From: an uncultured Deinococcales bacterium
GTDB lineage: Bacteria; Deinococcota; Deinococci; Deinococcales; JAAFIG01
Direction of reading: 5' to 3'
Assembly (NCBI GenBank): GCA_964247135.1
Contig: CAXTTL010000150.1
Location: forward strand, 1 to 11,969
DNA length: 11,969 nt
Position numbers and translations under genes: made by a program. The notes below the pieces were generated by a model. The model had not been told where the DNA came from and searched no databases. It saw nothing but the letters and a program-made list of their open reading frames with translations. Below, piece after piece: positions 1-11,862 of the stretch. Positions within the stretch are counted from its first letter, which is position 1; each line of letters starts with the position of its first letter.

Positions 1-1233
1 AGCGCCAGCGTCCAAAATGATCTCGCCAGGGTCTTGTCGGTCGGCGGGGTGCGGATTGAAGCGCCAGTGCCAGGCAAAAGCGTGATCGGGATTGAAGTGC
101 CAAACTCGGAACGCGAACCAATCACCTTCAGGGCTGGCATCGAATCCGAGAATTTCCAGAAACGCAAAACCAAACTGCCATTGCTGCTCGGCAAAAGCAT
201 TGACGGTGACATGCTGATCGAAGACCTGGCAAAAATGCCGCACCTGTTGATTGCTGGCAGCACGGGTTCGGGCAAATCGGTTTGCGTCAACACGCTTATC
301 ATGAGCCTGCTGTTTCGTTATCTGCCCACCGAATTGCGATTTGTGATGGTCGATCCGAAAATGGTCGAACTCACGCCTTACGACGGTATTCCCCACTTGG
401 TGCGCCCCGTGGTCACCAACCCGAACGACGCGGCTGGTGTGCTTTTGGGTTGCGTGGCGCACATGGAACGCCGTTATAAAATGATGAGTGAGATTCAAGC
501 CAAAAACCTCGAGCAGTACAACATCAAAGCCAAAGAGGCGGGCGAACCCGAACTGCCGCATTTGGTCATCATCATCGACGAGCTTGCAGATTTGATGATC
601 ACCAGTCCCAAAGAGGTCGAAAGTTCAATCATGCGACTGGCGCAAATGGCTCGAGCCACAGGAATGCACTTGATCCTTGCCACGCAACGCCCGAGTGCCG
701 ATGTGATTACCGGACTGATCAAAGTCAACATTCCTGCCCGTGTTGCCTTTGCCGTCTCGAGCGGCATCGATTCGCGCACGATTCTGGATTGCATGGGCGC
801 AGAACGCCTCACGGGGTACGGCGACATGCTCTTTAACCGTCCAGGACTTTCAAAACCAATGCGCTTGCAAGGACCTTATATTTCGGAAAACGAACTCGCG
901 CGAATTACCGAATTCTTGCGCCGCCAATTTTTTGACGACGATTTTGGCGAAAGCTACGGCAGCGACTTTGACGGCGTGACCGAAACCACCCCGACCTCCA
1001 AACTCGAGCCAATCGATTACAGCGACCCCTTCATCAAAAAAGCCGCCGAAGTGGTGATTGAAGAAGGTTATGCCGCCGTCTCGAGGTTGCAGCGCCGCCT
1101 GAGTGTCGGTCATGCGCGGGCGGGGAAATTGATCGATGCGCTCGAGGCGATGGGGATTGTGGGACCGTACAAGGGCAGCAAGACGCGAGATGTGCTGGTT
1201 GCCAGGGATCAACTTTCAGAATACTTTGGTTAA
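1..1233 (+). CDS. ftsK: DNA translocase FtsK/SpoIIIE, C-terminal motor and gamma domains (5'-truncated by window edge)
   Basis: Frame is open from base 1 ([22 protein letters not shown]). Contains Walker [16 protein letters not shown], Walker [31 protein letters not shown] and the winged-helix gamma domain [28 protein letters not shown]. Confidence 0.97.
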
Positions 1234-1239
1234 ACCCAC

Positions 1240-1245
1240 TATACT
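1240..1245 (+). promoter_or_regulatory. -10 box TATACT, leaderless promoter of the Uma2 gene
   Basis: TATACT-ggtttc-ATG(1252): 6-nt spacer, no Shine-Dalgarno. Typical Deinococcus-Thermus leaderless architecture. Confidence 0.65.
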
Positions 1246-1251
1246 GGTTTC

Positions 1252-1818
1252 ATGACCCAGGCACTCGAGCGACCACAACAACCGCAGCCGTATAAATTTA
1301 CGGTGGCTGTGTATGAAGCCATGTCTGAAACGGGAATGCTGGCTGGTCGTACAGAATTGATTCACGGGGTGATTGTTGAAATGCCACCAATGGGAGATGC
1401 GCACGTAGACGCTGTCGTGACCTTAACCGCCAAACTGTTCACAGCCTACTTTCCTCGAGCCGCCATTGCCTGCCAAGTGCCAGTTCGCTTGCCACCCTAC
1501 GGTGAACCCGAACCCGATTTTATGTTGGTGACAGCCAACTCGAGGGGTGTGCGCGAAGCATCAGATGTCTTGCTGATTATTGAGATCAGCAACAGCACCT
1601 ACAAACTCGACACCGAAGAAAAGCTTCCAATGTACGCCGAACATGGCATTCGAGACGTTTGGATTTTGAACGTCAAACTCAACCAACTCGAGGTGTACCG
1701 CAACCCGAAAAACTCCGCGCCTGGAGGTTGGGGTTACGACCCAGCCATCATTTGCCAACCAGGAACGACAATGGCACCCATCGAGTTTCCCCAAGACCCG
1801 CTCGAATGGTGGACGTGA
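1252..1818 (+). CDS. Uma2/DUF820 family PD-(D/E)XK nuclease-fold protein
   Basis: 188 aa with RTELIHGVIVEMPPMGDAH, EPEPD, LLIIEISNST, KLPMYAEHGIRDVWILN and LEVYRNP, all typical of Uma2. Confidence 0.9.
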   Translation: MTQALERPQQPQPYKFTVAVYEAMSETGMLAGRTELIHGVIVEMPPMGDAHVDAVVTLTAKLFTAYFPRAAIACQVPVRLPPYGEPEPDFMLVTANSRGVREASDVLLIIEISNSTYKLDTEEKLPMYAEHGIRDVWILNVKLNQLEVYRNPKNSAPGGWGYDPAIICQPGTTMAPIEFPQDPLEWWT

Positions 1819-2513
1819 ACAACCAAAATTCCCAAAATGTATTCTCGAGTTATCCACTGACAATTGGCTTGCTCGGGTTGTTGGCTGTTTTGTACGTGCT
1901 CGAGGCGAGTTACGGCGGTTTTAACTTTGCCAACATCGGCAACGGCGCGAGCATCGAGGCGCTTGTTGCATATGGAGGGAACGCGCACGAACTTGCGGTG
2001 AGCAAATCCGAGTGGTGGCGTTTGCTGACGGCGACCTTGCTTCACGGCAGCCTCGCGCACATCATCATGAACAGCTTTTCACTCTGGAATTTGGCGCGTC
2101 CGCTCGAGAGATCATTTGGACGCGAAACGCTTCTAACCGTGTTTGTCGTGACTGGCATCGCCGCATCGCTCAGTTTTGCATTGTTCGGCTCGAGGAACAC
2201 AATCTCGATAGGCGCGAGCGGTGCGATTTGCGGAATGTTGGGATTTTTGATTTCCTATGGCTCACGAAATCTCGAGGAATTATCCAAACAAATTCAGCGC
2301 AATTGGATTAACTTTGCGCTGTTGTTCGTGATCGGTTTCGCTATTCCAAACGTGGACAACTGGGCGCACGGCGGCGGTGTGATTTCGGGAATTGTTCTGG
2401 GCTTGATCTATCCAAGATTCCCTCGAGCGATTCGTATCAACCTGGGACGATTGAGTGGCGTGTTGTTGCTCTCGAGCGCGGTCTGGATTCTCAAACTCGC
2501 CGTTCTGGGTTAA
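1815..2513 (+). CDS. Rhomboid family intramembrane serine protease
   Basis: WWRLLTATLLH, HIIMN, catalytic GASG and H in AHGGG, several hydrophobic helices. Start moved to GTG 1815, which forms a GTGA overlap with the Uma2 stop. Confidence 0.92.
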   Translation: MNNQNSQNVFSSYPLTIGLLGLLAVLYVLEASYGGFNFANIGNGASIEALVAYGGNAHELAVSKSEWWRLLTATLLHGSLAHIIMNSFSLWNLARPLERSFGRETLLTVFVVTGIAASLSFALFGSRNTISIGASGAICGMLGFLISYGSRNLEELSKQIQRNWINFALLFVIGFAIPNVDNWAHGGGVISGIVLGLIYPRFPRAIRINLGRLSGVLLLSSAVWILKLAVLG

Positions 2514-3319
2514 AGCTTCACGACTTTGTACTCGAGCTTCACGGGTTCGATGCCCCCCACGGCGCGAAGCGTATCCATTTCCTCGAGGGGCTGTTCCCCT
2601 TCGCCTTGAAAAACTGTGATCTCGAGCGTGTCGAGGTCAAACGTACACAAATGTCCAGTCCAATATGCGCCCAAATCGATAAAAACGTTTTGTCCGATTC
2701 GTGTTGGAAAGCCTATTGGCGTGTGACCGTGCAAACTGAACAAGACGCCTTCGGGGACTGGAAATGGACCTTCTTCGGGTCGCGCCCAAACCATCAGGTC
2801 CTCGAGGCTGCGATAGCCTTTGATCTGGCACGGCGGTGCGGCATGAACGCAGAATATATCGCCGCGAACGCCGCCCTCGTGCCGATACGTGAACTGACAG
2901 CGATTGGCAAAGGTGATCAATTCTGGCGGCAATCCCCAGGGTCCAAAGGCGTCTGAAGCGCCGCCCTTGTCAAAATCGTCGTCCCAACCGCCGTACTCGA
3001 GAATCACGGTATCGCCACCGTTTTTGATCCAATTCTCGAGCGCGAGTTTGGCATCGTTGCGACGCAGGTCGTTGTTCTCTTTTTGAAAACGGTCGTAACA
3101 TTCGTCCACCTCGAGCATGATGGCTTCGTGGTTGCCGCGCAGCAAGGTCATGCGCCCCTCGTCGGCGAGTTTGGTCAATAAACGCACGGCGTCCTTGTTG
3201 CGGTGTCCACGGTCTACCGCGTCGCCCAAAAAAACAAATTCGGTGTCGGCGGGCGTGTTCGCCAGAATCCCCTCGAGCAGGTCGGCGCGTCCGTGAATAT
3301 CGGCAATCGCAAGTTTCAC
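2510..3319 (-). CDS. Calcineurin-like metallophosphoesterase (PPP/ApaH/PrpA-like)
   Basis: Motifs DIHG, GDAVDRG, RGNHE, VHA, HGHTP and IDLG. Stop shares TTAA with the rhomboid stop. Confidence 0.92.
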   Translation of the reverse strand: MKLAIADIHGRADLLEGILANTPADTEFVFLGDAVDRGHRNKDAVRLLTKLADEGRMTLLRGNHEAIMLEVDECYDRFQKENNDLRRNDAKLALENWIKNGGDTVILEYGGWDDDFDKGGASDAFGPWGLPPELITFANRCQFTYRHEGGVRGDIFCVHAAPPCQIKGYRSLEDLMVWARPEEGPFPVPEGVLFSLHGHTPIGFPTRIGQNVFIDLGAYWTGHLCTFDLDTLEITVFQGEGEQPLEEMDTLRAVGGIEPVKLEYKVVKL

Positions 3320-3366
3320 AAGTTCACCATGATTTGTCTACGGCTCGAGATGCGGTTTGGTTTCAT
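3316..3366 (-). CDS. Candidate 16-aa leaderless uORF (MKPNRISSRRQIMVNL)
   Basis: TAAACT -10 box (3373-3378, minus strand) lies 6 nt before ATG 3366. Its TGA overlaps the phosphoesterase GTG start (GTGA). Confidence 0.35.
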   Translation of the reverse strand: MKPNRISSRRQIMVNL

Positions 3367-3395
3367 GGATTCAGTTTAACGCAAAGTCCGTATTT

Positions 3396-3420
3396 GTAGG
3401 GACGCATGGATATGCGTTCT
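3396..3420 (+). repeat. Degenerate GTAG-type REP-like hairpin
   Basis: GTAGGGACGCAT-ggat-ATGCGTTCT. Same GTAGGG-stem architecture as the element at 8016-8042. Confidence 0.5.
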
Positions 3421-3447
3421 GGGATTCTCGAGTTTCCCAAAACGGCG

Positions 3448-3453
3448 TAAACT
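3448..3453 (+). promoter_or_regulatory. -10 box TAAACT, probable leaderless promoter of the PfpI gene
   Basis: TAAACT-gaggtc-ATG(3460), 6-nt spacer. Confidence 0.6.
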
Positions 3454-3459
3454 GAGGTC

Positions 3460-4041
3460 ATGATCGAAACCAAGTTCATCCCTTTTACCAAATCTGAATC
3501 TCGAGTTCTGAAGTTACAAGGTTTAAAGATCGTTTTTGTGGTCGCCGATGAAGTCGAAGACCTCGAGTATCACGTTCCCAGAATGCGGCTTCTCGAGGAG
3601 GGTGCAGTGGTGGTGACGGCGGCGTTAAAGGCTGGAGCTTATGTTGGCAAGGGCGGTTTGGGTTTGACGGCGAGCTTGGCGACCTCGGAATTGCAAGTCA
3701 GCGATTTTGACGCGGCGGTGATTCCTGGCGGGTGGGCGCCCGACAAAATGCGGCGCGACCAGCACCTTTTGGCGTTTTTGCGCGACATGAAAGCCAGCCG
3801 CAAAACTCAGGCTTACATTTGCCACGCGGGCTGGGTTGCTGCCAGCGCGGGCATTCTCGAGGCTGGAAGACCCGTGACGGGCAGTCTGGGCATCAAAGAC
3901 GACATGCTGGCTCGAGGGGCGGTCTGGCAGGACGTGGCGGCTTTTCGTGATGACGATTTGGTCTGGGGTCGGGTGGTGGCGGACATTCCAGACTTTTGCC
4001 GCGAATTGGTGGCGGCGCTCGAGGGTACGCGCTCAGGCTAA
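3460..4041 (+). CDS. DJ-1/PfpI family (type 1 glutamine amidotransferase-like) protein
   Basis: VEDLE (conserved Glu), DFDAAVIPGGWAPDKMRRD, nucleophile elbow ICHAGW, DDLVWGR. Confidence 0.92.
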   Translation: MIETKFIPFTKSESRVLKLQGLKIVFVVADEVEDLEYHVPRMRLLEEGAVVVTAALKAGAYVGKGGLGLTASLATSELQVSDFDAAVIPGGWAPDKMRRDQHLLAFLRDMKASRKTQAYICHAGWVAASAGILEAGRPVTGSLGIKDDMLARGAVWQDVAAFRDDDLVWGRVVADIPDFCRELVAALEGTRSG

Positions 4042-4956
4042 CTCGAGCTTTTGAGAATCCGCAATTTGCTGCGCCGCGACACACGCCGCGCCGATCACAC
4101 CAGCATCCGCACCAAGTTCAGCTTGACGAATGCAAACGGGGGCAAACTCGAGGGCGTTTTTGTTGGCGGCGGCTTGAATGCGATCCAGAAAAAAACTGCC
4201 CGTTTCTGAAACGCCGCCGCCCAGAATAAAAACTTCTGGGTCCACGATCAATTGCAAATCGCAGATCACCTGCCCAATCAAACCGGCGGCTTGGTCAATG
4301 ATGTTTAGGGCGCTCGAGTTGCCATCCGTAGCCAGGGCGAAAACCTCTCTGGTGCTCATGGAACGTCCAAAGACCTGGCTTGCCTTGTTTGCAATGCCAG
4401 TGCCGCTTGCAACCCCCTCCAAAGCCCCCAGAATGCCCGTGGCAGCCAACGCGCCGCCCTGATGGACGCGCACATGCCCAACCTCGCCGGCGATACCGTG
4501 AAAACCGCGCCAGATTCGGTTGTCTTGAATGATTGCCCCGCCGATGCCGGTCGAAATCGTCAGAAAAACGCTCGAGTCGGCAAAACGTGCCGCGCCGTAC
4601 AGATGCTCGGCGAGCGCGGCGGCTTTGGCGTCGTTCTCGAGCGCCACCGGTTTGGCAAAACCCAGTGAAAGTGCTTCCCGCAAAGCTACATTTTCAAATC
4701 CTGGAATGTTGACGGCAATCCGCACGCTGCCCTTTACAGCATCCACACTTCCTGGTGAACCCACGCCAATCGCTTTGACATTTGGCGCGAATCTCAGTAG
4801 CTCATGTCCCAACTCGAGCATTGCTGACATGACAGACGATGCGCCAGTTTGCGGTGTTGGCACAATTCGCTTCTCGAGAATTTGACCGTTCAAAACGACT
4901 GCGCCAGCAATTTTTGTGCCGCCGAGGTCAAGTCCAATCAAGGGTTCGTCTGTCAT
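4033..4956 (-). CDS. ROK family sugar kinase (glucokinase/amino-sugar kinase-like)
   Basis: N-terminal ATP motif IGLDLGGTKI, ENDAKAAALAE, STGIGG, GEVGH, DPEVFILGGG, LGADAGVIGA. No HTH domain. Confidence 0.92.
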   Translation of the reverse strand: MTDEPLIGLDLGGTKIAGAVVLNGQILEKRIVPTPQTGASSVMSAMLELGHELLRFAPNVKAIGVGSPGSVDAVKGSVRIAVNIPGFENVALREALSLGFAKPVALENDAKAAALAEHLYGAARFADSSVFLTISTGIGGAIIQDNRIWRGFHGIAGEVGHVRVHQGGALAATGILGALEGVASGTGIANKASQVFGRSMSTREVFALATDGNSSALNIIDQAAGLIGQVICDLQLIVDPEVFILGGGVSETGSFFLDRIQAAANKNALEFAPVCIRQAELGADAGVIGAACVAAQQIADSQKLELA

Positions 4957-4969
4957 GTTTCACCATTGC

Positions 4970-6016
4970 TCACAAGGTTTTTGTGACTTTTTTCAAGGAC
5001 CGAGGAGAATCTGGATTCAAACCCTTGACCAAACTGAGGTGTCCAGCAAACAAATACGCCGCAACAATCGCCACAATTGGGTCGGTCAAACGATGCCCAG
5101 TCGCGGGTGTGTTCAACCGTGTGGAAGCCGGAATTTCGGGCGTGTCATCACCGATCAAGACCAATTCTGCACCCCTGGACGCCAAATCCTGATAGCGTTC
5201 CAGCGTGCCTTGGGCGGTCGCGTCTCGGGCTTGAAAGGCAATCACCGGAAAACCTGGTTCGACCAAAATGATTGGACCGTGCGCGAATTCGGCGCTGCTG
5301 AACGCCTCGGTTTGCAGCACGCAGGTCTCTTTGAGTTTGAGCGCTGTCTCTTGCGCAATCGGATAGTGGATGCCTCGAGCCAGACTGACCATCGCCTCGG
5401 CGTAACGGTAACGCTCGCTGCGGTCTTGGGCGCTCTGTTCAAGCTCGAGCGTGGTTTTAAGGTTTGCAGGAAGGTTTTGTAGCGCGGCTTGCAGCGCGTT
5501 GTCTTGACTGAGATTCGCAATGACCTGAAGCGGTGCGACCAGACTCGCCACAAAACTTTTGGTCGCCGCGACCGCCAATTCCTCACCCGCCAGCATCGGC
5601 AGCACAAATTCGGCAACATCCTCGAGTGGCGAATTGTCTTGATTGACCAGTGCCACCGTGAGCGCCCCAGCCTCTCGGGCGGCACGCAAGGAATTCACGA
5701 CATCGGGTGATTGCCCAGATTGGGAAATGGCAATCACCACCGATTTTTTCAAACGCAATTTGGTTTGATACGCCGTAATCACGCTCGGCGAACTCGAGGC
5801 GGTCACCAAACCCAACTGCGTCTCGAGCGCGTACTTTAAGAAATTTGCCGCGTGGTCGCTGGTTCCCCTGGCGATGGTCACGGCAAAATCTGGGTTGTGC
5901 TCTCGGATGGCTCGAGCCAAGTTTTGATACCTGGCTTGATCGGTGTTCAGCAACCTAGAAACGACACTGGGTGTTTCCCTGATCTCGAGCAGCATGTGCG
6001 GCGTGGTGTTGTTCAT
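4970..6016 (-). CDS. Double-SIS-domain sugar-phosphate deaminase/isomerase, glucosamine-6-phosphate deaminase NagB-II-like
   Basis: ARGTSDHAA, ISQSGQSPD, AVAATKSF, ETALKLKE, EFAHGP and GlmS-like C-tail PDSPRSLKKVTKT, with no glutaminase domain. Start at ATG 6016 is preferred because of GAGGT-N5-ATG; the alternative is ATG 6043. Confidence 0.85.
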   Translation of the reverse strand: MNNTTPHMLLEIRETPSVVSRLLNTDQARYQNLARAIREHNPDFAVTIARGTSDHAANFLKYALETQLGLVTASSSPSVITAYQTKLRLKKSVVIAISQSGQSPDVVNSLRAAREAGALTVALVNQDNSPLEDVAEFVLPMLAGEELAVAATKSFVASLVAPLQVIANLSQDNALQAALQNLPANLKTTLELEQSAQDRSERYRYAEAMVSLARGIHYPIAQETALKLKETCVLQTEAFSSAEFAHGPIILVEPGFPVIAFQARDATAQGTLERYQDLASRGAELVLIGDDTPEIPASTRLNTPATGHRLTDPIVAIVAAYLFAGHLSLVKGLNPDSPRSLKKVTKTL

Positions 6017-6100
6017 GGTTGACCTCGAGTTGAGTTTATTCATTTCTTGTCAAATATTGATCTACCGATACGGGAATTGAAGCGCTCAACAATCATTGCC

Positions 6101-6955
6101 TCACTTCACCGCACCCTCGAGTCCTCGCATGAAAAACCGTTGGGCGAAGGCGAAAATAACCATGACCGGAATCATCATGATCATGGCACCGGCGGCGATA
6201 TTGAACGGGTCGTGGTTGAGTTGGCTTTTGAGTTGCAGCATCGCCACGCTCAAGGGTTGCAATTCTGGATTAAAAATCAGCGCAATCGATGGCCAGAAAT
6301 ACGAATTCCAGGTGTTCACCAGCGTAAAAATACCCAGTGCGGTCAAGCTTGGAATGGAGAGTGGGATCATTACCCGAAATAAAATTTGCAACTCGGTTGC
6401 GCCGTCCATCCGTGCCGCCTCGAGCAGCGCATCGGGAACGCTCATGTAGGCTTGACGCATCAAGAAAATGCCGAAGGCGGTGGCAATAATTGGGATCACC
6501 ACGCCCCAGTACGTGCCGAGCAAGCCGATGCGGTTTAAAGTAATCACGTTCACGATAAAACTGGTTTCACTGGGCAAAACGAGCGTCGAAAGGATGGCGG
6601 TAAAAATAATGTTTCGTCCTGGAAACTCGAGTTTGGAGAGCGGGTAGGCTGCCAGCGCCGATACGAGCAGCGTGCCGATCACGCTCAGACCAGAAATCAC
6701 AATCGAATTCCAGAGGTATTTGTTTAAACTAAAATCCCTGAACACCGCGAAAAAATTGTTCAGCGTGATGACTTTGGGAAACAAACTGCCTGGAAAATCG
6801 TAAATGCTGACGCCGCTGGTCACGGTTTTGTCGGTCAGTGAAATGGCGAGCGTCCACAAGAATGGAAACAAGGCAAATAGCGCAATCAGAATCAAACCCA
6901 AATACGTCAAAAAACTCGAGATTCCGCGTGCCGTGGTTACTCGAGGGCGTGTCAT
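6101..6955 (-). CDS. Carbohydrate ABC transporter permease (MalG-like)
   Basis: EAA loop LLEAARMDGA, AAYPLSKLEFPGR, WNSYFWP, multiple transmembrane helices. Confidence 0.95.
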   Translation of the reverse strand: MTRPRVTTARGISSFLTYLGLILIALFALFPFLWTLAISLTDKTVTSGVSIYDFPGSLFPKVITLNNFFAVFRDFSLNKYLWNSIVISGLSVIGTLLVSALAAYPLSKLEFPGRNIIFTAILSTLVLPSETSFIVNVITLNRIGLLGTYWGVVIPIIATAFGIFLMRQAYMSVPDALLEAARMDGATELQILFRVMIPLSIPSLTALGIFTLVNTWNSYFWPSIALIFNPELQPLSVAMLQLKSQLNHDPFNIAAGAMIMMIPVMVIFAFAQRFFMRGLEGAVK

Positions 6956-7890
6956 GCTTTCCTCTGTCTGTCGGGTGCTTCTTGGGTCAGTTTAAAATTC
7001 AGGTAACTGAGGAAAAACCCGACGATGGCAATCAGCAACCCCGCCGCGCTCGCCGTACCAAACGCAAATTTGCTGCCAAAAGCTTTGCTGTAAACGTACA
7101 TCAATGCCGTGTAGGTGCTGTTCAGTGGTCCGCCGTTGGTGAAGACAATGATTTCCTCGAGCACCCGAATGGCGGCGAGCGTGGACAGCAAACTGCACAG
7201 CAAAATCGTCGGACGCATCAAGGGCACGGTCACGCGCCAAAAGGTTTGGCTTGGGCTGGCGCCGTCGAGCCGTGCCGCCTCCTCGAGTTCGAGCGGAATG
7301 GCTTGCAAGCCACCCAGGTACAAAACCATGTAATAACCAAAACCGCGCCAAAACGTGACGAGCATGATCGCCCAAATGGCGGTGTCGGGGTTGTTCAGCC
7401 AGCCGAAAGCGTTAAACTCGAGCTTGCCACCGAAAAGACTGGCAATGGCGTTCACAACGCCAACGATAAACTTTAAGCCCCAGTTTAAAACCCCGTCCTT
7501 GGAATACACCCAATCCCACATCACCGACGCCAGTGAGATGCTGGTGATGACAGGCACGTAATAGGCGGCGCGAAAAAAAGTGATGGCGGGAAGTTTGCGG
7601 TTGACCAGCGTCGCCACGCCCAAACTGGCGAGTTGCAGCACCGGAACGACCAGCAAATACTTCAAGGAATTCCAGATTCCAGTGCGAAACAGTTCATCGG
7701 CAAAAACGGTTTTGAAATTCTCGAGTCCGACAAAATTCGCTGAAATTTCACCGCTCAAGTTTTTTTGACTGTAATCGGTAAAACCGAGCCAAGAGCCGTA
7801 AATTACAGGATAAAACGTGAACAACGCCATCAAGATCAAGGCTGGGGCGAGAAACGCGTAAGCCAAGAAAAGTGTATTGGATTTTCGCAT
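6952..7890 (-). CDS. Carbohydrate ABC transporter permease (MalF/UgpA-like)
   Basis: FVGLENF, EAA loop LEEAARLDGA, SD GGAGG upstream, ATGA overlap with the next permease. Confidence 0.95.
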   Translation of the reverse strand: MRKSNTLFLAYAFLAPALILMALFTFYPVIYGSWLGFTDYSQKNLSGEISANFVGLENFKTVFADELFRTGIWNSLKYLLVVPVLQLASLGVATLVNRKLPAITFFRAAYYVPVITSISLASVMWDWVYSKDGVLNWGLKFIVGVVNAIASLFGGKLEFNAFGWLNNPDTAIWAIMLVTFWRGFGYYMVLYLGGLQAIPLELEEAARLDGASPSQTFWRVTVPLMRPTILLCSLLSTLAAIRVLEEIIVFTNGGPLNSTYTALMYVYSKAFGSKFAFGTASAAGLLIAIVGFFLSYLNFKLTQEAPDRQRKA

Positions 7891-8015
7891 TCATTGACCT
7901 CCAGTCTTTGGGGTGGCTCAAGCGGTGCAAATAAATTCTCGAGATTTTATTGAATTTGCTTTGTTGTGCTTTAAAAATGTTGGGTTCTTTCAATTTGGGG
8001 CACGGTATCAGGTCA

Positions 8016-8042
8016 TAGGGGCGAGGCACGCCTCGCCCCTAC
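8016..8042 (-). repeat. GTAG-type REP-like palindrome between the binding-protein and permease genes
   Basis: Minus strand reads GTAGGGGCGAGGC-GT-GCCTCGCCCCTA, a perfect 12-bp inverted repeat starting with GTAG. Confidence 0.75.
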
Positions 8043-8065
8043 AGGGTCAATCTGCTCGAGCTTGC

Positions 8066-9331
8066 TTACTTCGCGTTGGCGTTCCAGAAGGCGACGGCAT
8101 CGTTCAAAGCGGCTTGGGCGCTCTTCTTGCCCAGGAATGCGGCTTCGATGTTGTCGTTAAAGTTCTTGTAGATATCGTCGGTGTTCTTTGGTGACTTCCA
8201 GCCTGGGGTGATGAAGCGTCCCGCGCCTGACACCAAACTGGTGGCGACATCGAGCGCATCGTTCGGGTTGGCGGCTTTGAGGTCGGGGTCTTTTTCAGCG
8301 CCTTTGGTGGTCGGCACGATACCAGCCAGTTTCGAGAATTTGACCTGGTTGGCGTTGTTGGTCATGAACAGCGCAAACAAGGCGGCTTCCTTTTGGTTTT
8401 TGCTGGCTTTGGGAATGACCAGGCTCATGCTGCCACCGGTTTGCACACCCGCCGAACCCAGGGGCGCTTCGACGACTTTGGTTTTGGCGTAAATGTCTTT
8501 GTTGGCGTCTTTGACTCGAGTCAGGGCTTGCGCACCGCCGATGATGAAGGCGCTCTTGCCTTGGCTGTAGAGTTCGTTATTCAGTTGAAACGCTTCTTTG
8601 CGCAGCAGGTCTTGCGGAATCACGTCTGATTTCATGAGGTTGACAAATTTGGTCAGCAGCTTGGCGTGGGCTGGGCTGTTAAACACCGCTTTGCCGTCCT
8701 TCACGATTGGCAGACCCTCGAGGTAAAAATGCCCTAAAAAGCTGGCACCGTTGGGGTCTTTGATCGGGGGTAACCAACCGTAAGCGCCTGTGGCGGCTTT
8801 GATTCGTCTTGACATGCTCAGCACTTCGTTCAGCGTTTTTGGTGGTGATTTGATGCCTGCTTTTTGCAGCAATTCGCTGTTGTAAGCCATCACGCCCTGA
8901 TCGGTCCAACCGTACCAAGGATAGCCGTAATTTTTGCCGTCCACGTTGAACATGCCAATCGTGTTGTCCCAGAATTGTGCGCGGAGTGCATCGTTGCTGG
9001 TCAGGTCATTGACGGGCGTCAACAGTCCGTCTTGGGCAAACGAAGCCGTGGCATCGATCCAGAGGTTGACCACGTCTGGGGTTTTGCCCAGCGCAATCGC
9101 GGCTTGGAGGTCGCGCACCATCGTGTCTTGCTTGTCGGCAAGCTTAACCGTGATGGTCGGGTTTGCCTTTTCAAAATCGCCAATCACGCCCTTCAGGTAC
9201 GGGTCAAACTTGGGCGACAAATACCAGGACCAGAATTCGATCTCGGTTTTTTGGGTTTGTGCCAAACTCGAGATTCCCAAAGCCCCCGTGAGTGCCAAAA
9301 TTCCTGCGCCGATCAGTAACTTCTTGTTCAT
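8066..9331 (-). CDS. Sugar ABC transporter substrate-binding protein (family 1)
   Basis: Start re-called at ATG 9331 (AGGAG-N4-ATG). Signal peptide MNKKLLIGAGILALTGALGISSLA with no lipobox Cys, IEFWSW, FEKANP, GKTPDV, GLLTPV, DGKNYGYPW, GKKSAQAALNDA. Confidence 0.93.
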   Translation of the reverse strand: MNKKLLIGAGILALTGALGISSLAQTQKTEIEFWSWYLSPKFDPYLKGVIGDFEKANPTITVKLADKQDTMVRDLQAAIALGKTPDVVNLWIDATASFAQDGLLTPVNDLTSNDALRAQFWDNTIGMFNVDGKNYGYPWYGWTDQGVMAYNSELLQKAGIKSPPKTLNEVLSMSRRIKAATGAYGWLPPIKDPNGASFLGHFYLEGLPIVKDGKAVFNSPAHAKLLTKFVNLMKSDVIPQDLLRKEAFQLNNELYSQGKSAFIIGGAQALTRVKDANKDIYAKTKVVEAPLGSAGVQTGGSMSLVIPKASKNQKEAALFALFMTNNANQVKFSKLAGIVPTTKGAEKDPDLKAANPNDALDVATSLVSGAGRFITPGWKSPKNTDDIYKNFNDNIEAAFLGKKSAQAALNDAVAFWNANAK

Positions 9332-9435
9332 ACAGCTCCTTTTTTGGTCAGTAATTTTGACCAGTGAATGAATGAGAGAATCATCGCTCGAGCCACGTGG
9401 CGAACAACGAAACATGGATTGCTTTTGCTGGCTCG

Positions 9436-9465
9436 AGTCTAGATCAAAAAGTTGTGACCAGACAA
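9436..9465 (-). promoter_or_regulatory. Candidate promoter of the ABC/catabolic operon
   Basis: Minus strand TTGTCT-N18-TAGACT, overlapping GGTCA-type inverted repeats. Confidence 0.35.
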
Positions 9466-9490
9466 GTCTTAAGTTTGACCTGTCTTGGGT

Positions 9491-10669
9491 TTAACTCGAG
9501 ACAGGTGCGCGAATGCTGCTGAGAACCGCCAGGGCTGCCGCCCCATACAAACCAGAGCGCTCTCCCAAGCGGGTGTAATCGATTCGCAGTTGCCGCGTCG
9601 AAAGTGGCAAACTTTTGGAATAAACACTTTGGCGGATGCTGGCGAGCAGCAACGGACTGATTTGGGCAACCTCGCCGCCAATAAAAATTCTGGAAGGATT
9701 GAGTAAATTTACCGTGGCAGCCAGCACTTGACCGATGGCGCTGCCCGCACGGTGAATGATTTCGTTGGCAGCAATGTCACCGTCCAAAGCCGCTGCCCCA
9801 ACATCCTGGATAGTCAATTCATTTGGTTGTTTGTTCAAGGCTTCGGTTGCCCTCCGAACAATGGCTTGTGCTCCCGCCAGCATCTCGAGGCAACCAACAT
9901 TGCCGCACACACATCGCTGTCCGTTTGGATCGACGCAGATATGGGCGATATCGCCCGCCGCACCGTCCGTGCCACGGTAAATGTCACCCTGGGCAATAAT
10001 CGCCGCGCCAATGCCGGCGCTCAGTTTGACCACCACAAAGTTTTCTGACCTGCTCGAGGTGGGGGCGTTTGTGCGGTGATGCCACAGTTCACCCAATGCC
10101 ATCACGTTGACGTCGTTATCGACAACCACCTTCAAGCCCAAACTCGAGTTGAAATAGTCTTGAAATGACATGCCCTCCCAGCCCGCCATCAAAATCGGGT
10201 GAACCATCGTGCCGCCTTCAAAGTCCACCGGTCCTGGAACGCCCAAACCAATGCGTCCAATGGAGGACGGCTCGAGATGATGTTGTTGCAAAAGGTTTTT
10301 GATGCTTTTGCTGATGGTTGGCATGACGGTTTGCGGACCGCTTCGGACATCAACCTCTTCGCTGGTGATGGCAACAAACTGCAAGTTCGCGTCAGACAGG
10401 GCGATGTGCACCATGTTTGCCCAAAGGTCAACGCCGATCACATGACCAAATCGGGTCGAGAGGTGAACTTCGCTGGCGGGACGCCCCGTGTTCGCATGTT
10501 GCGTGCCGCCCTCCTCGAGCCAGCCTTCCGCCAGCAAATTGCTGACCAGGGCATTCAATTTGCTTTTGGAAAATTTGGTCTGTTCGATCAGCCTGTGACG
10601 CGACGGTGTGCCTTCCCAGAAGACGTGCTCGAGAATGCTGCGTTCGTCGCTGCTGAAGTTTTGGCTCAC
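9491..10669 (-). CDS. ROK family transcriptional regulator (NagC/XylR-like)
   Basis: N-terminal wHTH (SRHRLIEQTKFSKSKLNALVSNLLAEGWL, GRP), GVPGP, DNDVN, GAAGDIAH and intact Zn motif CVCGNVGCLE. Confidence 0.93.
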   Translation of the reverse strand: MSQNFSSDERSILEHVFWEGTPSRHRLIEQTKFSKSKLNALVSNLLAEGWLEEGGTQHANTGRPASEVHLSTRFGHVIGVDLWANMVHIALSDANLQFVAITSEEVDVRSGPQTVMPTISKSIKNLLQQHHLEPSSIGRIGLGVPGPVDFEGGTMVHPILMAGWEGMSFQDYFNSSLGLKVVVDNDVNVMALGELWHHRTNAPTSSRSENFVVVKLSAGIGAAIIAQGDIYRGTDGAAGDIAHICVDPNGQRCVCGNVGCLEMLAGAQAIVRRATEALNKQPNELTIQDVGAAALDGDIAANEIIHRAGSAIGQVLAATVNLLNPSRIFIGGEVAQISPLLLASIRQSVYSKSLPLSTRQLRIDYTRLGERSGLYGAAALAVLSSIRAPVSS

Positions 10670-10675
10670 GGTTTG

Positions 10676-10681
10676 ATTGTA
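10676..10681 (-). promoter_or_regulatory. -10 box TACAAT, leaderless promoter of the ROK regulator
   Basis: Minus strand TACAAT-caaacc-GTG(10669), no SD. Confidence 0.65.
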
Positions 10682-10831
10682 TTGGTTTTGATGAAGACTC
10701 GAGTTTTATTTTAGAAGAGTTTTTTCACGAATAGGATAATCGTGAAACTAATCACGTGATCGTGGTTGCCTCACCTGCTCGAGGCACAAAAGCATGTTTC
10801 ACTCGGGTTGAAGTCAGCCGTTTCCAAACAC

Positions 10832-10860
10832 TTGACCAAAATGAACTTGCCTGTTACACT
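10832..10860 (+). promoter_or_regulatory. Sigma-70 type promoter of tRNA-Ala
   Basis: TTGACC (10832-10837), 17-bp spacer, extended TGn-TACACT (10855-10860), 23 bp upstream of the tRNA. Confidence 0.75.
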
Positions 10861-10883
10861 TCTCTCCGCTCGAGAGAGCATGT

Positions 10884-10958
10884 GGGGGCGTAGCTCAGTG
10901 GGAGAGCGCCGCATTTGCAATGCGGATGTCGTGGGTTCGAATCCCTCCGCCTCCACCA
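10884..10958 (+). tRNA. tRNA-Ala (anticodon TGC)
   Basis: Acceptor stem GGGGGCG/CGCCTCC with the G3:U70 Ala identity pair, discriminator A and encoded CCA. D arm AGCTCAGTGGGAGAGC, anticodon arm CCGCA-TTTGCAA-TGCGG, T loop TTCGAAT. Confidence 0.97.
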
Positions 10959-10962
10959 AACC

Positions 10963-10990
10963 AGACGGGCTTAACGGCTCGTCTTTTTTT
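10963..10990 (+). terminator. Rho-independent terminator after tRNA-Ala
   Basis: Stem-loop AGACGGGCT-TAAC-GGCTCGTCT followed by a T run. Confidence 0.85.
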
Positions 10991-11018
10991 ATGGAAATGT
11001 GAGGCAGACTTTGAAGCG

Positions 11019-11024
11019 TAGAAT
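11019..11024 (+). promoter_or_regulatory. -10 box TAGAAT, probable leaderless promoter of murI-rph
   Basis: TAGAAT-tgaagcc-GTG(11032), downstream of the tRNA terminator. Confidence 0.6.
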
Positions 11025-11031
11025 TGAAGCC

Positions 11032-11862
11032 GTGAACCGAGATGCTCGAGCACCCATAGGCGTTTTTGATTCCGGCGTCGGCGGTTTAACCGTGCTCAAA
11101 GCCTTGCGCGAGCAACTGCCAGGCGAGGATTTCATTTACCTCGGCGACACTGCAAGGTTGCCTTACGGTCGCAAACCTCCCGAAATGGTGCGCGAATTCG
11201 CCCAACAAATCTCGAGTTTTCTCGTCAATCAAGGCGTGAAATTTTTGGTGATCGCCTGCAACACCGCCACCAGTTGCGCCCTGCCAGGACTTGCCGACGA
11301 CCTGCCGATTCCCGTGCTCGGCGTGATCGAACCTGGCGTGGCGGCGGCTCGAGCGATAAACCACGGCGGACAAGTCGGTGTGGTCGCCACCAAAGGCACG
11401 ATCAACGCCCGCGCTTATCAATCCAGGCTCGAGAAAGCTGGGTTGCGCGTCTGGTCGCAAGCCTGCCCCATGTTTGTGCCGTTGGTGGAAGAGGGACTGG
11501 CAGACTCGCCCGAAGCTGAGTTGATTGTCAGGCATTACCTTTCAGACCGCCCGAGTGACCTCGAGGTTTTGATTCTGGGCTGTACGCATTACCCGATGCT
11601 GAAAAACGTGATTGCCAACGAACTCGGAACTGGCGTGGTGATCGTCGATTCTGCCAGCGTCACCGCGAGTGAGACCGCGCTCGAGTTAAGTCAAATGCAG
11701 CTTCTCAACCCAAAAACCAGTGGGGGAGAAGTCATTCATTACGTGACTGGCGACCCGCAAAGTTACCAACACACCGCCAGCGTGATCGGCGGCGTGAACG
11801 GCGAAATCAGGTTGCTCGAGATTGAAAAACTTTTGGAAAGAAGCCCCCAACATGCCAACTAG
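11032..11862 (+). CDS. murI: Glutamate racemase
   Basis: PIGVFDSGVGGLTV, GDTARLPYG, catalytic ACNTAT and LGCTHYP. Start at GTG 11032 is preferred; the alternative is GTG 10999. Confidence 0.97.
   Translation: MNRDARAPIGVFDSGVGGLTVLKALREQLPGEDFIYLGDTARLPYGRKPPEMVREFAQQISSFLVNQGVKFLVIACNTATSCALPGLADDLPIPVLGVIEPGVAAARAINHGGQVGVVATKGTINARAYQSRLEKAGLRVWSQACPMFVPLVEEGLADSPEAELIVRHYLSDRPSDLEVLILGCTHYPMLKNVIANELGTGVVIVDSASVTASETALELSQMQLLNPKTSGGEVIHYVTGDPQSYQHTASVIGGVNGEIRLLEIEKLLERSPQHAN

Follow-up and report, generated by a model that had tools for sequence, protein, structure and literature searches.

CTCGAG in the window

What keeps a single six-base palindrome, CTCGAG, at 81 copies in 11,969 bases of bacterial DNA? 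The window, by which we mean the whole stretch of that length, contains a dispersed and, owing to the palindrome, strandless array of the hexamer at 508..11820 (first copy 508-513, last 11815-11820; mean spacing ~140 bp). A sequence-only reading had counted about 81 copies against about 3 expected and had likened the word to HIP1, the highly iterated palindrome (HIP) of cyanobacteria. The count of 81 is exact, and 200 dinucleotide-preserving shuffles yield a mean of 2.23 (sd 1.42, maximum 7), with none reaching 81.

Protein identities in the window come from a Pfam scan of the coding frames other than two ORFs (284 and 312 aa). The C-terminal part of an FtsK gene (1..1233, plus strand, open at its 5' end; PF01580, PF09397) carries six sites, divided 3/1/2 among the three phases; they fall on the invariant peptides LE, ARA, VSS and VSR and, in one case, on a newly created LE in the variable linker. 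The plus strand continues with the gene of a putative PD-(D/E)XK endonuclease of the Uma2/DUF820 type (1252..1818; PF05685, E 6e-27; 4 sites) and a rhomboid protease gene of uncertain start (1851..2513; 6 sites). All eight sites of a metallophosphoesterase gene (2510..3319, minus strand) lie in the Leu-Glu phase, and a 140-bp spacer (3320..3459; sites 3344 and 3427) separates this gene from a DJ-1/PfpI gene (3460..4041, plus; 6 sites). The end of the latter overlaps that of a converging ROK-family gene (4033..4956, minus; 7 sites), and site 4018 in the DJ-1/PfpI gene and site 4042 in the ROK gene are 24 bp apart. The minus strand further encodes a SIS-domain protein (4970..6043; 8 sites, with all three phases used), the two ORFs of membrane-like sequence (6101..7890; 5 and 4 sites) and, beside them across a 175-bp spacer (7891..8065; sites 7938 and 8055), a solute-binding protein (8066..9415) whose 4 sites (3.0 per kb) are the most thinly spread in the window. 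A 75-bp spacer (9416-9490; one site, 9432), a second ROK-family gene (9491..10669, minus; 7 sites) and a 214-bp spacer with three sites (10670..10883; 10698, 10778 and 10869; 14 per kb) precede a tRNA-Ala(TGC) gene (10884..10958, plus; 0 sites) and an Asp/Glu racemase-family gene (10999..11862, plus; 7 sites).

The word had been said to occur in every full-length protein gene, in all three codon phases and in most long spacers, and the window bears this out. All 12 coding frames carry 4-8 sites, the phases comprise 45 CTC-GAG, 11 xCT-CGA-Gxx and 16 xxC-TCG-AGx sites, and each of the four interior spacers of at least 75 bp has at least one site. Nine sites lie outside the listed genes; besides the tRNA gene, spacers of 18, 40 and 57 bp and a 107-bp end piece are site-free.

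Genome-wide abundance and codon usage

The window's genome (G000; a draft of 5,091,702 bases, 84% complete, in contigs of 2-116 kb) contains 33,925 copies of CTCGAG, one per 150 bp. The zero-order observed/expected ratio (O/E) of the word, 24.8, is the highest of all hexamers (next unrelated hexamer 5.8), and its anagram GAGCTC has 0 copies genome-wide; this comparison had been proposed in the sequence-only reading. Enrichment is not confined to one contig: it extends to all 386 contigs, at 2.6-11.3 sites per kb, and to 18 further assemblies of the window's family.

Might the excess stem from codon or dipeptide usage, from a dispersed repeat or from an artefact (assembly or synthetic)? The Leu-Glu phase holds 63% of coding sites, and CTC and GAG are preferred codons in GC-rich relatives, which in part explains the milder CTCGAG excess there. 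However, a synonymous-codon shuffle that keeps each protein and each gene's codon usage leaves 3,748-3,870 coding copies (5 replicates) where 27,415 are observed, a 7.2-fold excess, and the word is denser in spacers (7.8-10.1 per kb) than in coding DNA (6.55 per kb). Glu-Leu pairs are not enriched, and the anagram is missing. The flanks are nearly uninformative (strongest G at -1 / C at +1, 39%), and the copies stand alone as six-base words outside any longer repeat. The pattern also recurs in 19 separate assemblies, one of them a closed single contig. The shuffles and the non-coding density refute this reading, to which we assign a negligible probability.

The preference itself is strong. Leu-Glu pairs are written CTCGAG in 77.2% of cases, versus 4.9% expected from codon use elsewhere; this bias would correspond to an odds ratio of ~66 and a population-scaled coefficient near 4. 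By phase, 77/42/48% of CTCGAG opportunities are occupied in G000 versus 9/2/2% in the unbiased genome G124, and 61% of the protein-neutral opportunities in G000 are occupied overall.

Maintenance of sites and effect on proteins

Are the copies actively held? With the approach that Xu et al. 2018 (PMC5861425) applied to HIP1, we compared 229 kb of G000 with the aligned DNA of G137, a genome of the same genus, at 85% identity. CTCGAG is conserved at 1,292 of 1,613 sites (80.1%); the corresponding figures are 44.6% over all remaining hexamers, 34.9% over the remaining palindromes and 36.3% over one-off CTCGAG variants. Such positional conservation cannot tell selection from strong biased repair or conversion and, at 61-77% saturation, much of its genic part could be independent re-creation. 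Non-coding sites are conserved at 179 of 218 (82%) versus 44.8%. The codons CTC, GAG, CGA and TCG are conserved at 79-88% within the word versus 49-63% outside it, and sequence 1 to 60 bp from the word evolves at the background rate (0.84-0.85). CTCGAG displays both signatures described for HIP1 by Xu et al. (PMC5861425), namely conservation above control words and better conservation of codons inside the word. A force at the DNA level holds the copies on exactly six bases, overrides codon choice and acts equally in non-coding DNA, and the copies are gained and lost by point substitution.

This force also swaps amino acids conservatively, converting LD, IE, VE and LQ into LE. Among 190 ortholog pairs, Leu-Glu occurs 1,044 times in G000 versus 578 times in G124, the corresponding Glu-Leu counts are 492 and 431, and only 25% of the CTCGAG-encoded Leu-Glu pairs of G000 are also Leu-Glu in G124.

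The abundance might instead be a functionless by-product, in which biased repair or gene conversion, for example in a polyploid genome, turns near-cognate hexamers into CTCGAG faster than they decay. Such a process would fit a force that does not distinguish genes from spacers and acts on all six positions alike, the differences between G000 and G137 being distributed over the six. It would also fit the transition neighbours, which are somewhat raised and not depleted (O/E in G000: TTCGAG 1.74, CCCGAG 1.43, CTTGAG 1.17), as constant turnover predicts, and amino-acid changes that resemble a cost rather than a benefit; for alternate HIPs, Elhai raises the possibility of epiphenomena (PMC4390886). 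However, Vsr-type repair would guard positions 3/4 only and deplete CTTGAG, neither of which is seen, CTCGAG richness is stable over five genera of the window's family, and single sites are kept across genera, those in phases 1 and 2 included. To our knowledge, no repair enzyme converts any of the 18 neighbours of a 6-bp palindrome into the full palindrome, and we consider the by-product explanation unlikely.

Spread across Deinococcota

All 19 genomes of the window's family are hyper-rich in CTCGAG. Among Deinococcaceae, G002, G122 and G123 are rich, and G124, from the genus of G122 and G123, has an O/E of 1.01; the 111 Deinococcus-like genomes are all poor, Deinococcus avoiding the word, and Thermus-like genomes show no enrichment. 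A discrete lineage-level determinant is suggested. HIP1-like behaviour, as first proposed, is upheld in that the abundance is genome-wide and lineage-wide, covers all phases and spacers, and is independent of codon and dipeptide usage. The suggestion that Meiothermus-related genomes are CTCGAG-rich is partly right: named loci of Meiothermus/Calidithermus are mildly enriched, at 2.8 times the protein-preserving expectation, against 7.3 times in the window's family. Two methylases common to the rich genomes G000 and G123 are 67% (PvuII-like) and 75% (Dam-like) identical, above the protein median of 52%, and indicate gene exchange between these two rich lineages. Our literature search found no publication on hyper-abundant CTCGAG in the window's lineage.

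Search for a methyltransferase

Is the word marked by methylation? In a HIP1-type mechanism, an orphan CTCGAG (or TCGA) methyltransferase, either of an unrecognised family or itself often replaced, would mark the sites. Copies would then build up through a role of the methylated sites in repair or replication, or by the methylation-directed mismatch-repair ratchet of Elhai. We regard this mechanism as possible but doubtful. Cyanobacterial HIPs are described as occurring together with methylases that read them (PMC4390886), Nocardia is reported to have orphan CTCGAG methylases (PMC4752239), and a preprint (10.64898/2026.06.24.734251) lists CTCGAG and TCGA as methylated motifs that are shared within one hot-spring host-phage group. 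Moreover, G000 is 84% complete, and its methylases L095, L097 and L100 have no assigned specificity.

However, the CTCGAG/TCGA methyltransferase without a cognate endonuclease that the sequence-only reading had envisaged did not emerge: the XhoI-family endonuclease (PF04555) occurs in 0 of the 19 genomes of the window's family, and its partner methylase (PF01555) in 0 of these 19 and in 0 of 125 Deinococcaceae, including the rich G002 (96% complete), G122 and G123. Across Deinococcota, the XhoI-type endonuclease is found in 7 of 364 genomes and the PF01555 family in 43 of 364; 24 of 32 Thermus-like genomes, none of them enriched, carry the latter. G000 has no TaqI-sized PF07669 enzyme, and none of its profiled methyltransferases is common to all CTCGAG-rich genomes. 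Their orthologs are patchy within the window's family (L100 in 3, L097 in 4, L103 in 6 and L101 in 5 of 18; 34-genome panel), and the assignable enzymes fit avoided words (M.PvuII-like, CAGCTG, 15 sites; M.HaeIII-like, GGCC, O/E 0.02). G002 has a single C5 enzyme and a pair of large PF07669 proteins, none of which finds a G000 counterpart above 35% identity. The inner-C C-to-T excess expected of m5C is missing, with 37 differences at positions 3/4 versus 54 and 46 at the other pairs, and the ratchet, on the repair range of ~1 kb given by Elhai (PMC4390886), would saturate at that distance and not at one site per 150 bp.

Site spacing

Close CTCGAG pairs are under-represented in coding DNA only, and the effect is missing or reversed in convergent spacers. 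Because this repulsion is coding-specific, it lends no support to a bound protein, and hairpin avoidance is a better account of it than the footprint of a protein. Dimers of a nucleoid-associated protein might occupy the tens of thousands of CTCGAG copies and give the chromosome its structure. This reading would agree with the even coverage of G000 (mean 33.2 sites per 5-kb window, sd 7.9, minimum 8; largest gap 2,644 bp), with a pair correlation that is flat (1.04-1.07) from 75 to 480 bp, and with the nucleoid role that Xu et al. 2018 inferred for HIP1 (PMC5861425). Nevertheless, we judge it improbable, given that the pair correlation has no periodic peaks, that exclusion limited to coding DNA is no sign of a footprint, and that a candidate protein is lacking. 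A periodicity of 10-90 kb has been claimed for HIP1; the contigs of G000 span 2-116 kb.

Proposed explanation

CTCGAG is a genuine, force-held HIP of this uncultured Deinococcales family, and we propose, with a probability of roughly 40%, that a factor reads it as a mark of DNA from the lineage itself. This factor would recognise CTCGAG specifically and bind or process DNA there, and DNA carrying the word would be favoured, allowing copies to accumulate, most plausibly via natural transformation and homologous recombination. The accumulation may reflect molecular drive or selection resembling that of uptake sequences, similar to the current proposal for HIP1 in cyanobacteria. Within the window's family, the reader would apparently differ from recognisable XhoI/TaqI-type methyltransferases and endonucleases, and no reader protein was identified. 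Protein constraints may limit the density, as may selection against the 6-bp-stem hairpins that nearby copies would form in transcripts. Among the directions raised from the sequence, our analysis prefers an uptake or nucleoid protein. Deinococcus and Thermus are naturally competent yet unenriched, and therefore competence alone is no predictor of CTCGAG. Known uptake sequences have 9-12 bases and are non-palindromic, which counts against an uptake role.

Comparison with known systems

The XhoI/PaeR7I-type restriction-modification pair, in Deinococcota a PF04555 endonuclease and a PF01555 methylase, addresses the same six-base word and is present inside the phylum, but it is missing from the window's family (0/19). 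Genomes normally avoid restriction sites and do not accumulate them. The DUS of Neisseriaceae and the USS of Pasteurellaceae are likewise lineage-specific short words that occur genome-wide at protein-compatible positions and are shared by related species, and they are thought to spread via uptake bias and recombination. They are, however, non-palindromic, 9-12 bases long and spaced at about one per kb, with a pilin receptor known in Neisseria, whereas CTCGAG is a six-base palindrome at one per 150 bp whose putative role in uptake or recombination is drawn by analogy. Very-short-patch repair on CCWGG in E. coli also shifts an oligonucleotide genome-wide, through repair at a methylated palindrome, but by much less than two-fold and with a loss of the deamination product; CTCGAG shows a 25-fold excess, undepleted CTTGAG (O/E 1.17) and protection of six positions. 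Orphan CTCGAG methylases are described in Actinobacteria (Blow et al. 2016, PMC4752239; the MamA pair of M. smegmatis, PMC7526240), and Blow et al. link that of Nocardia to a clustering of sites at the origin of replication, unlike the genome-wide abundance seen here.

The closest likeness is to HIP1 (GCGATCGC) and the alternate cyanobacterial HIPs (Elhai 2015, PMC4390886; Xu, Lawrence and Durand 2018, PMC5861425; Rodriguez-Cruz et al. 2026, PMC13756078), which are also short palindromes, 15- to 300-fold over-represented. Like CTCGAG, HIP1 is dispersed as single copies over genes, in all frames, and spacers, spreads by substitution, is lineage-wide except for occasional close relatives that lack the abundance, and resides in genomes that avoid many other palindromes. 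HIP1 has DmtA and DmtC, whereas no co-distributed methyltransferase was found for CTCGAG in the genomes examined. CTCGAG further differs in being a 6-mer rather than an 8-mer, in belonging to another phylum, in being several times denser (6.7 per kb versus the 0.3-2.7 per kb of Table 2 in PMC4390886) and in measurably near-doubling one dipeptide, Leu-Glu, in the proteome.

Abundance of CTCGAG

The window contains 81 copies of CTCGAG, the first at position 508 and the last at 11815-11820, against a mean of 2.23 (sd 1.42, maximum 7) in 200 dinucleotide-preserving shuffles, which confirms the hyper-abundance claimed in the sequence-only reading. Each of the 12 protein-coding frames carries 4-8 copies (45, 11 and 16 in codon phases 0, 1 and 2, that is, CTC-GAG, xCT-CGA-Gxx and xxC-TCG-AGx), and all four interior spacers of at least 75 bp carry at least one; the tRNA-Ala gene carries none. 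The window corresponds to contig C150 of the metagenome-assembled genome (MAG) G000, which comprises 5.09 Mb in 386 contigs of 2-116 kb, is 84% complete and has 52.7% G+C. CTCGAG is its top hexamer: the 33,925 copies amount to one per 150 bp and give a zero-order observed/expected ratio (O/E) of 24.8. Otherwise only words that overlap CTCGAG exceed an O/E of 6, and the next unrelated word stands at 5.8. The density is 2.6-11.3 copies per kb on every contig, and the longest copy-free run is 2,644 bp. The anagram GAGCTC, which had been suggested for comparison, has no copy in G000. Confinement to one contig, an outcome that would have spoken against the claim, is not what we find: all 386 contigs carry the word, and all 19 genomes of the window's family are rich in it. 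The hyper-abundance is both genuine and extreme.

Positions 4033-10669 of the window form an ordinary sugar-utilisation cluster, with a gene for a SIS-domain protein, one for a solute-binding protein, two of the ROK family and two open reading frames (ORFs) with membrane-like sequence. A Pfam scan places a putative PD-(D/E)XK endonuclease of the Uma2/DUF820 family at 1252-1818 on the forward strand. This family is expanded in cyanobacteria. Rough first-look counts gave 25 Uma2 candidates in G000, 10-42 in 17 of the 18 other family genomes and 5 in G134, and the family is also multi-copy in Thermus-like genomes (matches in 32 of 32) and several Trueperaceae genera. No match was found in any of the 23 genomes of family f3 or in the CTCGAG-rich Deinococcaceae genome G002. 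Uma2 copy number was rejected as a correlate of enrichment because, by these rough counts, Uma2 is equally abundant in the non-enriched Thermus-like genomes and without a match in G002.

Codon usage and the proteome

Is the enrichment a by-product of codon or dipeptide usage? A simple ORF and codon-score procedure called 4,178 genes in G000 (82% coding), which contain 27,415 copies, 17,145, 4,045 and 6,225 in phases 0, 1 and 2. Synonymous-codon shuffles within genes, which preserve the protein sequence and codon usage of each gene, leave 3,748-3,870 copies in five replicates, a 7.2-fold difference, and shuffling of codon order leaves 1,583-1,701. Leu-Glu pairs are spelled CTCGAG in 77.2% of cases, against 4.9% predicted from the codon usage found outside these pairs. 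Spacers are at least as dense as genes, with 7.2 copies per kb in non-coding sequence overall and 7.8-10.1 in short spacers versus 6.55 in genes. The synonymous shuffles, the Leu-Glu coding bias and the spacer density rule out a codon or dipeptide artefact. Disappearance of the enrichment under codon-preserving shuffling had been set beforehand as a refuting outcome; the enrichment persists, with 27,415 copies against at most 3,870. If a mutation-selection balance is assumed, the Leu-Glu odds ratio near 66 would correspond, by our arithmetic, to a population-scaled coefficient of about 4.

The positions beside CTCGAG are nearly uninformative, the strongest being G at -1 and C at +1 (39%), and the copies are thus isolated hexamers rather than fragments of a longer element. 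A longer repeat or extended motif such as GCTCGAGC was rejected on these weak flanks, and GCTCGAGC accounts for only 4,225 of 33,929 8-mer contexts.

CTCGAG has also rewritten the proteome. In G000 the word occupies 77%, 42% and 48% of the protein-silent opportunities in phases 0, 1 and 2 (61% over all silent opportunities), compared with 9%, 2% and 2% in the unbiased Deinococcaceae genome G124. Leu-Glu is the most over-represented dipeptide of G000 (O/E 2.36, versus 1.02 for Glu-Leu), and Ser-Ser, which can be encoded by TCGAGC/T, reaches 1.62. Across 190 ortholog pairs of G000 and G124 (63,050 aligned residues, 50.5% identity), Leu-Glu is nearly doubled (1,044 vs 578), with 492 vs 431 for Glu-Leu and 312 vs 454 for Leu-Asp. 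Just 25% of the CTCGAG-encoded Leu-Glu pairs of G000 are also Leu-Glu in G124, where the commonest counterparts are LD (68), IE (32), VE (24), LQ (24), LR (23) and LS (23). In FtsK of the window's family, the word sits on the invariant peptides LE, ARA, VSS and VSR through recoding, and in the variable linker a new Leu-Glu has been created in the window's genus. FtsK is the one gene in which common origin and convergence of shared positions across relatives were compared, and coincident positions are likely because the word is saturated.

Conservation of the word

Conservation was assessed with 350 kb of the same-genus genome G137, of which 229 kb aligned to G000 at 85% identity. CTCGAG is kept at 1,292 of 1,613 sites (80.1%), whereas all other hexamers are kept at 44.6%, other palindromes at 34.9% and one-off variants at 36.3%; it is the best-conserved hexamer among those with at least 80 occurrences. 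Conservation is 82%, 69% and 82% in the three phases, again versus 44.6% for other hexamers, and non-coding copies are kept in 179 of 218 cases (82%) versus 44.8% for other non-coding hexamers. By our arithmetic, the non-coding figures correspond to an approximately fourfold lower per-base rate in CTCGAG. The codons CTC, GAG, CGA and TCG are conserved at 88, 87, 79 and 88% inside the word and at 54, 63, 49 and 60% outside it. An active force holds exactly the six bases of CTCGAG.

Error-prone patch repair around the sites was rejected because the flanks evolve at the background rate (0.84-0.85 at 1-60 bp from conserved copies). The site differences between G000 and G137 are single transitions over all six positions (54, 46 and 37 at position pairs 1/6, 2/5 and 3/4), and this spread points neither to an m5C hotspot nor to Vsr-type protection at a single position. 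A test for the Vsr signature likewise revealed no depletion of deamination neighbours and no protection limited to the methylated C position; CTTGAG/CTCAAG has an O/E of 1.17 in G000, and the one-off neighbours are not depleted. We regard a functionless conversion bias as an unlikely origin of the word.

Spacing of the copies

Copies are spaced slightly more regularly than a geometric distribution would give (CV 0.96), and close neighbours are strongly under-represented. The pair correlation stands at 0.15 for 6-8 bp and at 0.35-0.52 for 9-17 bp, reaches about 1.0 at roughly 65 bp and then stays level at 1.04-1.07 as far as 480 bp; periodic peaks are absent over this range. Copies exactly 6 bp apart are trivially ruled out, since they would generate GAGCTC. 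A nucleoid role for the word appears improbable to us.

The short-range repulsion is also seen with the protein held fixed, by scoring Leu-Glu pairs according to their distance from the nearest other copy. The fraction spelled CTCGAG is 45% at 9-14 bp, 58% at 15-17 bp, 70% at 18-23 bp and 81-86% at 45-200 bp; beyond 500 bp, in motif-poor regions, it is 36%. Within coding sequence the repulsion is strong (pair correlation 0.17-0.46 at 7-18 bp) and in tandem spacers it is weak, but in convergent spacers, which bear terminators, it is missing or even inverted (1.03-1.33 at 12-30 bp; 99 pairs vs 85.8 expected). This contrast between coding sequence and convergent spacers led us to reject the repulsion as evidence for a bound protein. 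Two copies on one strand can pair as a 6-bp stem, and avoidance of hairpins within transcripts, with tolerance or use at gene ends, fits the repulsion better than a footprint does. The window offers an example of close copies tolerated at gene ends: a CTCGAG pair 24 bp apart (4018-4047) lies at the overlapping 3' ends of the converging genes 3460-4041 (forward strand) and 4033-4956 (reverse strand).

Distribution among Deinococcota

FtsK relatives put G000 among uncultured "Deinococcales bacterium" MAGs; the 84%-complete MAG contains no 16S rRNA. We counted CTCGAG in 364 Deinococcota genomes, with genome sizes rounded. All 19 genomes of the window's family, from five genera, have 4.3-6.8 copies per kb, with GAGCTC mostly at 0-25 copies, whereas the 111 genomes of the Deinococcus-like genus have at most 0.36 per kb. 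The exceptions among Deinococcaceae are G002 (3.6 per kb) and the congeners G122 and G123 (8.6 and 7.0), set against 0.3 in G124 of the same genus. The 33 genomes of Meiothermus/Calidithermus-like genera have 1.4-3.5 per kb, several-fold above GAGCTC, the 32 Thermus-like genomes about 0.6-1.6, similar to GAGCTC, and the 128 Trueperaceae genomes 0.3-2.8. Protein-preserving shuffles of fetched loci gave O/E values of 7.3 for other genera of the window's family, 2.8 for named Meiothermus/Calidithermus, 1.6 for other Thermaceae, 1.8 for Trueperaceae and 0.24 for named Deinococcus. The richness of Meiothermus-related genomes mentioned in the sequence-only reading is thus partly borne out, as a 2.8-fold enrichment over shuffles, but the extreme state is that of the window's family and of a small number of Deinococcaceae. 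Deinococcus and Thermus are naturally competent; Deinococcus-like and Thermus-like genomes are without CTCGAG enrichment.

In 92 kb of G123, the O/E is 28, GAGCTC and CAGCTG are absent, and the profile is as in G000; 400 kb of G124 gave an O/E of 1.01 and no palindrome bias. Proteins of G123 and G000 have a median identity of about 52% (31 proteins), whereas their PvuII-like methylases (L096 and L106) are 67% identical and their Dam-like methylases (L103 of G000 and its counterpart on contig C72 of G123) 75%. This excess over the proteome median suggests horizontal exchange of restriction-modification genes between the two rich lineages.

G000 avoids many other palindromes: GAGCTC occurs 0 times, GGGCCC 1, CGGCCG 3, AGGCCT 4, CGTACG 5, GGATCC 7, CCGCGG 11, CAGCTG 15 and GCATGC 17, and the tetramers GGCC and CTAG have O/E values of 0.02 and 0.07. 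Such avoidance, together with resident near-copies of M.HaeIII and M.PvuII, indicates that ordinary restriction pressure is heavy in the lineage.

CTCGAG density is about half the usual value on contig C112, which encodes a 1,499-aa N6-methylase/SNF2-helicase fusion, and on C75, which encodes a TraG-like conjugation ATPase. Both are likely mobile elements, partly adapted to the host word. The ATPase and the fusion, accompanied by genes that are accessory or without assignment, moderately support the view that motif-poor segments are foreign DNA.

Methyltransferases and restriction enzymes

The sequence-only reading had suggested, among other possibilities, a CTCGAG/TCGA methyltransferase behind the word, and had proposed to correlate enrichment with XhoI/PaeR7I/TaqI-like methylases lacking an endonuclease. 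For the known methylase families, in incomplete genomes, neither link is supported. The XhoI-family endonuclease (PF04555) is absent from G000, and the same search finds it in 7 of the 364 Deinococcota genomes (G150, G152, G153, G155, G166, G174 and G356; loci L198-L205), none of which belongs to the window's family or to Deinococcaceae. Two of the 7 have endonuclease genes with stop codons, and the carriers have 0.7-2.0 CTCGAG per kb. The conserved neighbour is a convergent PF01555 methylase of 340 residues, which shows 79% identity in a comparison of two carriers. This partner family occurs in 43 of the 364 genomes; among them are 13 of the 23 genomes of family f3, and 24 of the 32 Thermus-like genomes keep the methylase alone. 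Both endonuclease and methylase are found in 0 of 19 genomes of the window's family, and the methylase in 0 of 125 Deinococcaceae; the best match in G000 is 25% identical. The partner methylase was rejected as an orphan driver because it is present in non-enriched Thermus-like genomes and absent from the rich family. The phylum's known CTCGAG system does not track enrichment.

The recognisable DNA methyltransferases of G000 comprise five PF01555 hits, two C5 enzymes, three large PF07669 proteins (two MmeI-like and the SNF2-helicase fusion on its motif-poor contig), one PF02384 enzyme and the Dam-like L103. L096 is a near-copy of the solved M.PvuII (E 1.5e-149) and L099 of the solved M.HaeIII (E 6.5e-124). 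G000 avoids their sites, CAGCTG and GGCC, and near-identity assigns the two enzymes to these words. Four further loci were traced across 34 genomes, of which 18 belong to the window's family and 16 do not. Family orthologs of L100, L097, L103 and L101 occur in 3, 4, 6 and 5 of the 18, respectively, with L103 also in G123, and on this patchiness the four were rejected. For L095, L096, L099, L098, L087 and all three large PF07669 proteins, comparison extended at most to the hits in five contrast genomes. No PF01555 enzyme is found in the rich genome G002 (96% complete), and nothing in G000 matches the one C5 enzyme or the two large PF07669 proteins of G002 at more than 35% identity. The large PF07669 proteins were rejected as a common driver at no more than 31% identity between G000 and the genomes G002, G123 and G001.

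An orphan methylase that escaped detection here could nevertheless lie behind CTCGAG. The search was limited to the Pfam families PF01555, PF00145, PF07669, PF02384 and PF02086 in incomplete MAGs, and within that scope no methylase ortholog common to the rich genomes was found. We hold this explanation to be rather unlikely.

Two of these loci have features of their own. At the L096 locus (G000:C36:17500-23500), a divergent 163-aa ORF (1736-2227, reverse strand) lies beside the PvuII-like methylase ORF (2511-3560, forward strand) and could be its putative endonuclease. Over its 777 bp, the gene of the 258-aa N4-cytosine-type methylase of L095 (contig C189 of G000; 2357-3133, reverse strand) has 0 CTCGAG copies instead of the roughly 5 that the density of G000 would predict, and it is probably a recent arrival.

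Proposed role of CTCGAG

We propose, with a probability of roughly 0.4, that CTCGAG is a recognition word for a putative reader and is kept because uptake, recombination or repair favours the DNA that carries it. A bolder form of this proposal, which we consider unlikely as a whole, would make CTCGAG a 'self' word. Its putative reader would be unlike recognisable methyltransferases or restriction enzymes and would mark DNA to be taken up, recombined or protected. Because the determinant would be transferable, deeply separated lineages of Deinococcota (G002, G122/G123, the window's family and, more weakly, Meiothermus and some Trueperaceae) would have converged on the word and would preferentially exchange genes with one another. 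If true, highly iterated palindromes would be a general, methylase-independent bacterial strategy and not a cyanobacterial peculiarity.

CTCGAG supplies a second, denser and simpler case of a highly iterated palindrome (HIP) in another phylum, which allows a comparative test of every hypothesis on HIP1, the cyanobacterial word. The orphan-methylase link appears to fail here, at least for recognisable methylases. The natural on/off contrasts of G122/G123 versus G124 and of Meiothermus versus Thermus suit a gene-content search for the determinant, and Meiothermus and Calidithermus are culturable, mildly enriched relatives for direct methylation, binding and transformation work. The near-doubling of Leu-Glu and the use of most silent opportunities show how far a DNA-level word can reach into the proteome. 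CTCGAG is also a practical marker of foreign DNA, and for binning, in the rich lineages. The present analysis adds a phylum-wide map with within-genus contrasts, the assignment of methylases to avoided sites, the exclusion of the phylum's XhoI-type pair, an estimate of saturation and the explanation of repulsion as a coding-specific hairpin effect.

Comparison with known systems

The HIP1 puzzle has been open for three decades, and work on it has, to our knowledge, been almost confined to cyanobacteria. We found no description of CTCGAG over-representation in Deinococcota in the main text of open-access papers. CTCGAG exceeds the order-of-magnitude over-representation of the HIP class, is dispersed as single copies in all frames and in non-coding sequence without being driven by codons, and is conserved above control words, with codons better kept inside the word. 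The HIP1-like behaviour proposed from the sequence holds on every sequence-level comparison of abundance, dispersal and conservation. A quasi-periodic distribution at 10-90 kb is a further criterion of the cyanobacterial palindromes. The analogy fails on a single mechanistic criterion, a co-distributed methyltransferase for the word or its core, as judged from known Pfam families in incomplete MAGs.

Maintenance of HIP1 is argued from positional and codon conservation tests (Xu et al. 2018, PMC5861425), and HIP palindromes are described as sharing their distribution with methyltransferases specific for the word or for its core (Elhai 2015). HIP1 is further stated to have a methylation-dependent enhancing effect on transformation, and a role as an uptake sequence is proposed (Rodriguez-Cruz et al. 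2026, PMC13756078); HIP1 density was also analysed there by regression with correction for phylogeny. For CTCGAG itself, published descriptions cover orphan methylases with site clusters at the origin in Nocardia (Blow et al. 2016), a predicted restriction-modification pair in M. smegmatis (PMC7526240) and, in a 2026 preprint (10.64898/2026.06.24.734251), one hot-spring host-phage group that shares methylated CTCGAG and TCGA.

XhoI-type restriction-modification combines a PF04555 endonuclease with an adjacent methylase, neither of which occurs in the window's family. Very-short-patch repair bias of the Vsr type would be expected to deplete neighbours and to protect a single position, and CTCGAG displays neither. 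DNA uptake sequences (DUS/USS) promote the preferential uptake of word-bearing DNA through a specific receptor. They are asymmetric words of 9-12 bases that occur about once per kb, whereas CTCGAG is a symmetric 6-mer that occurs once per 150 bp.
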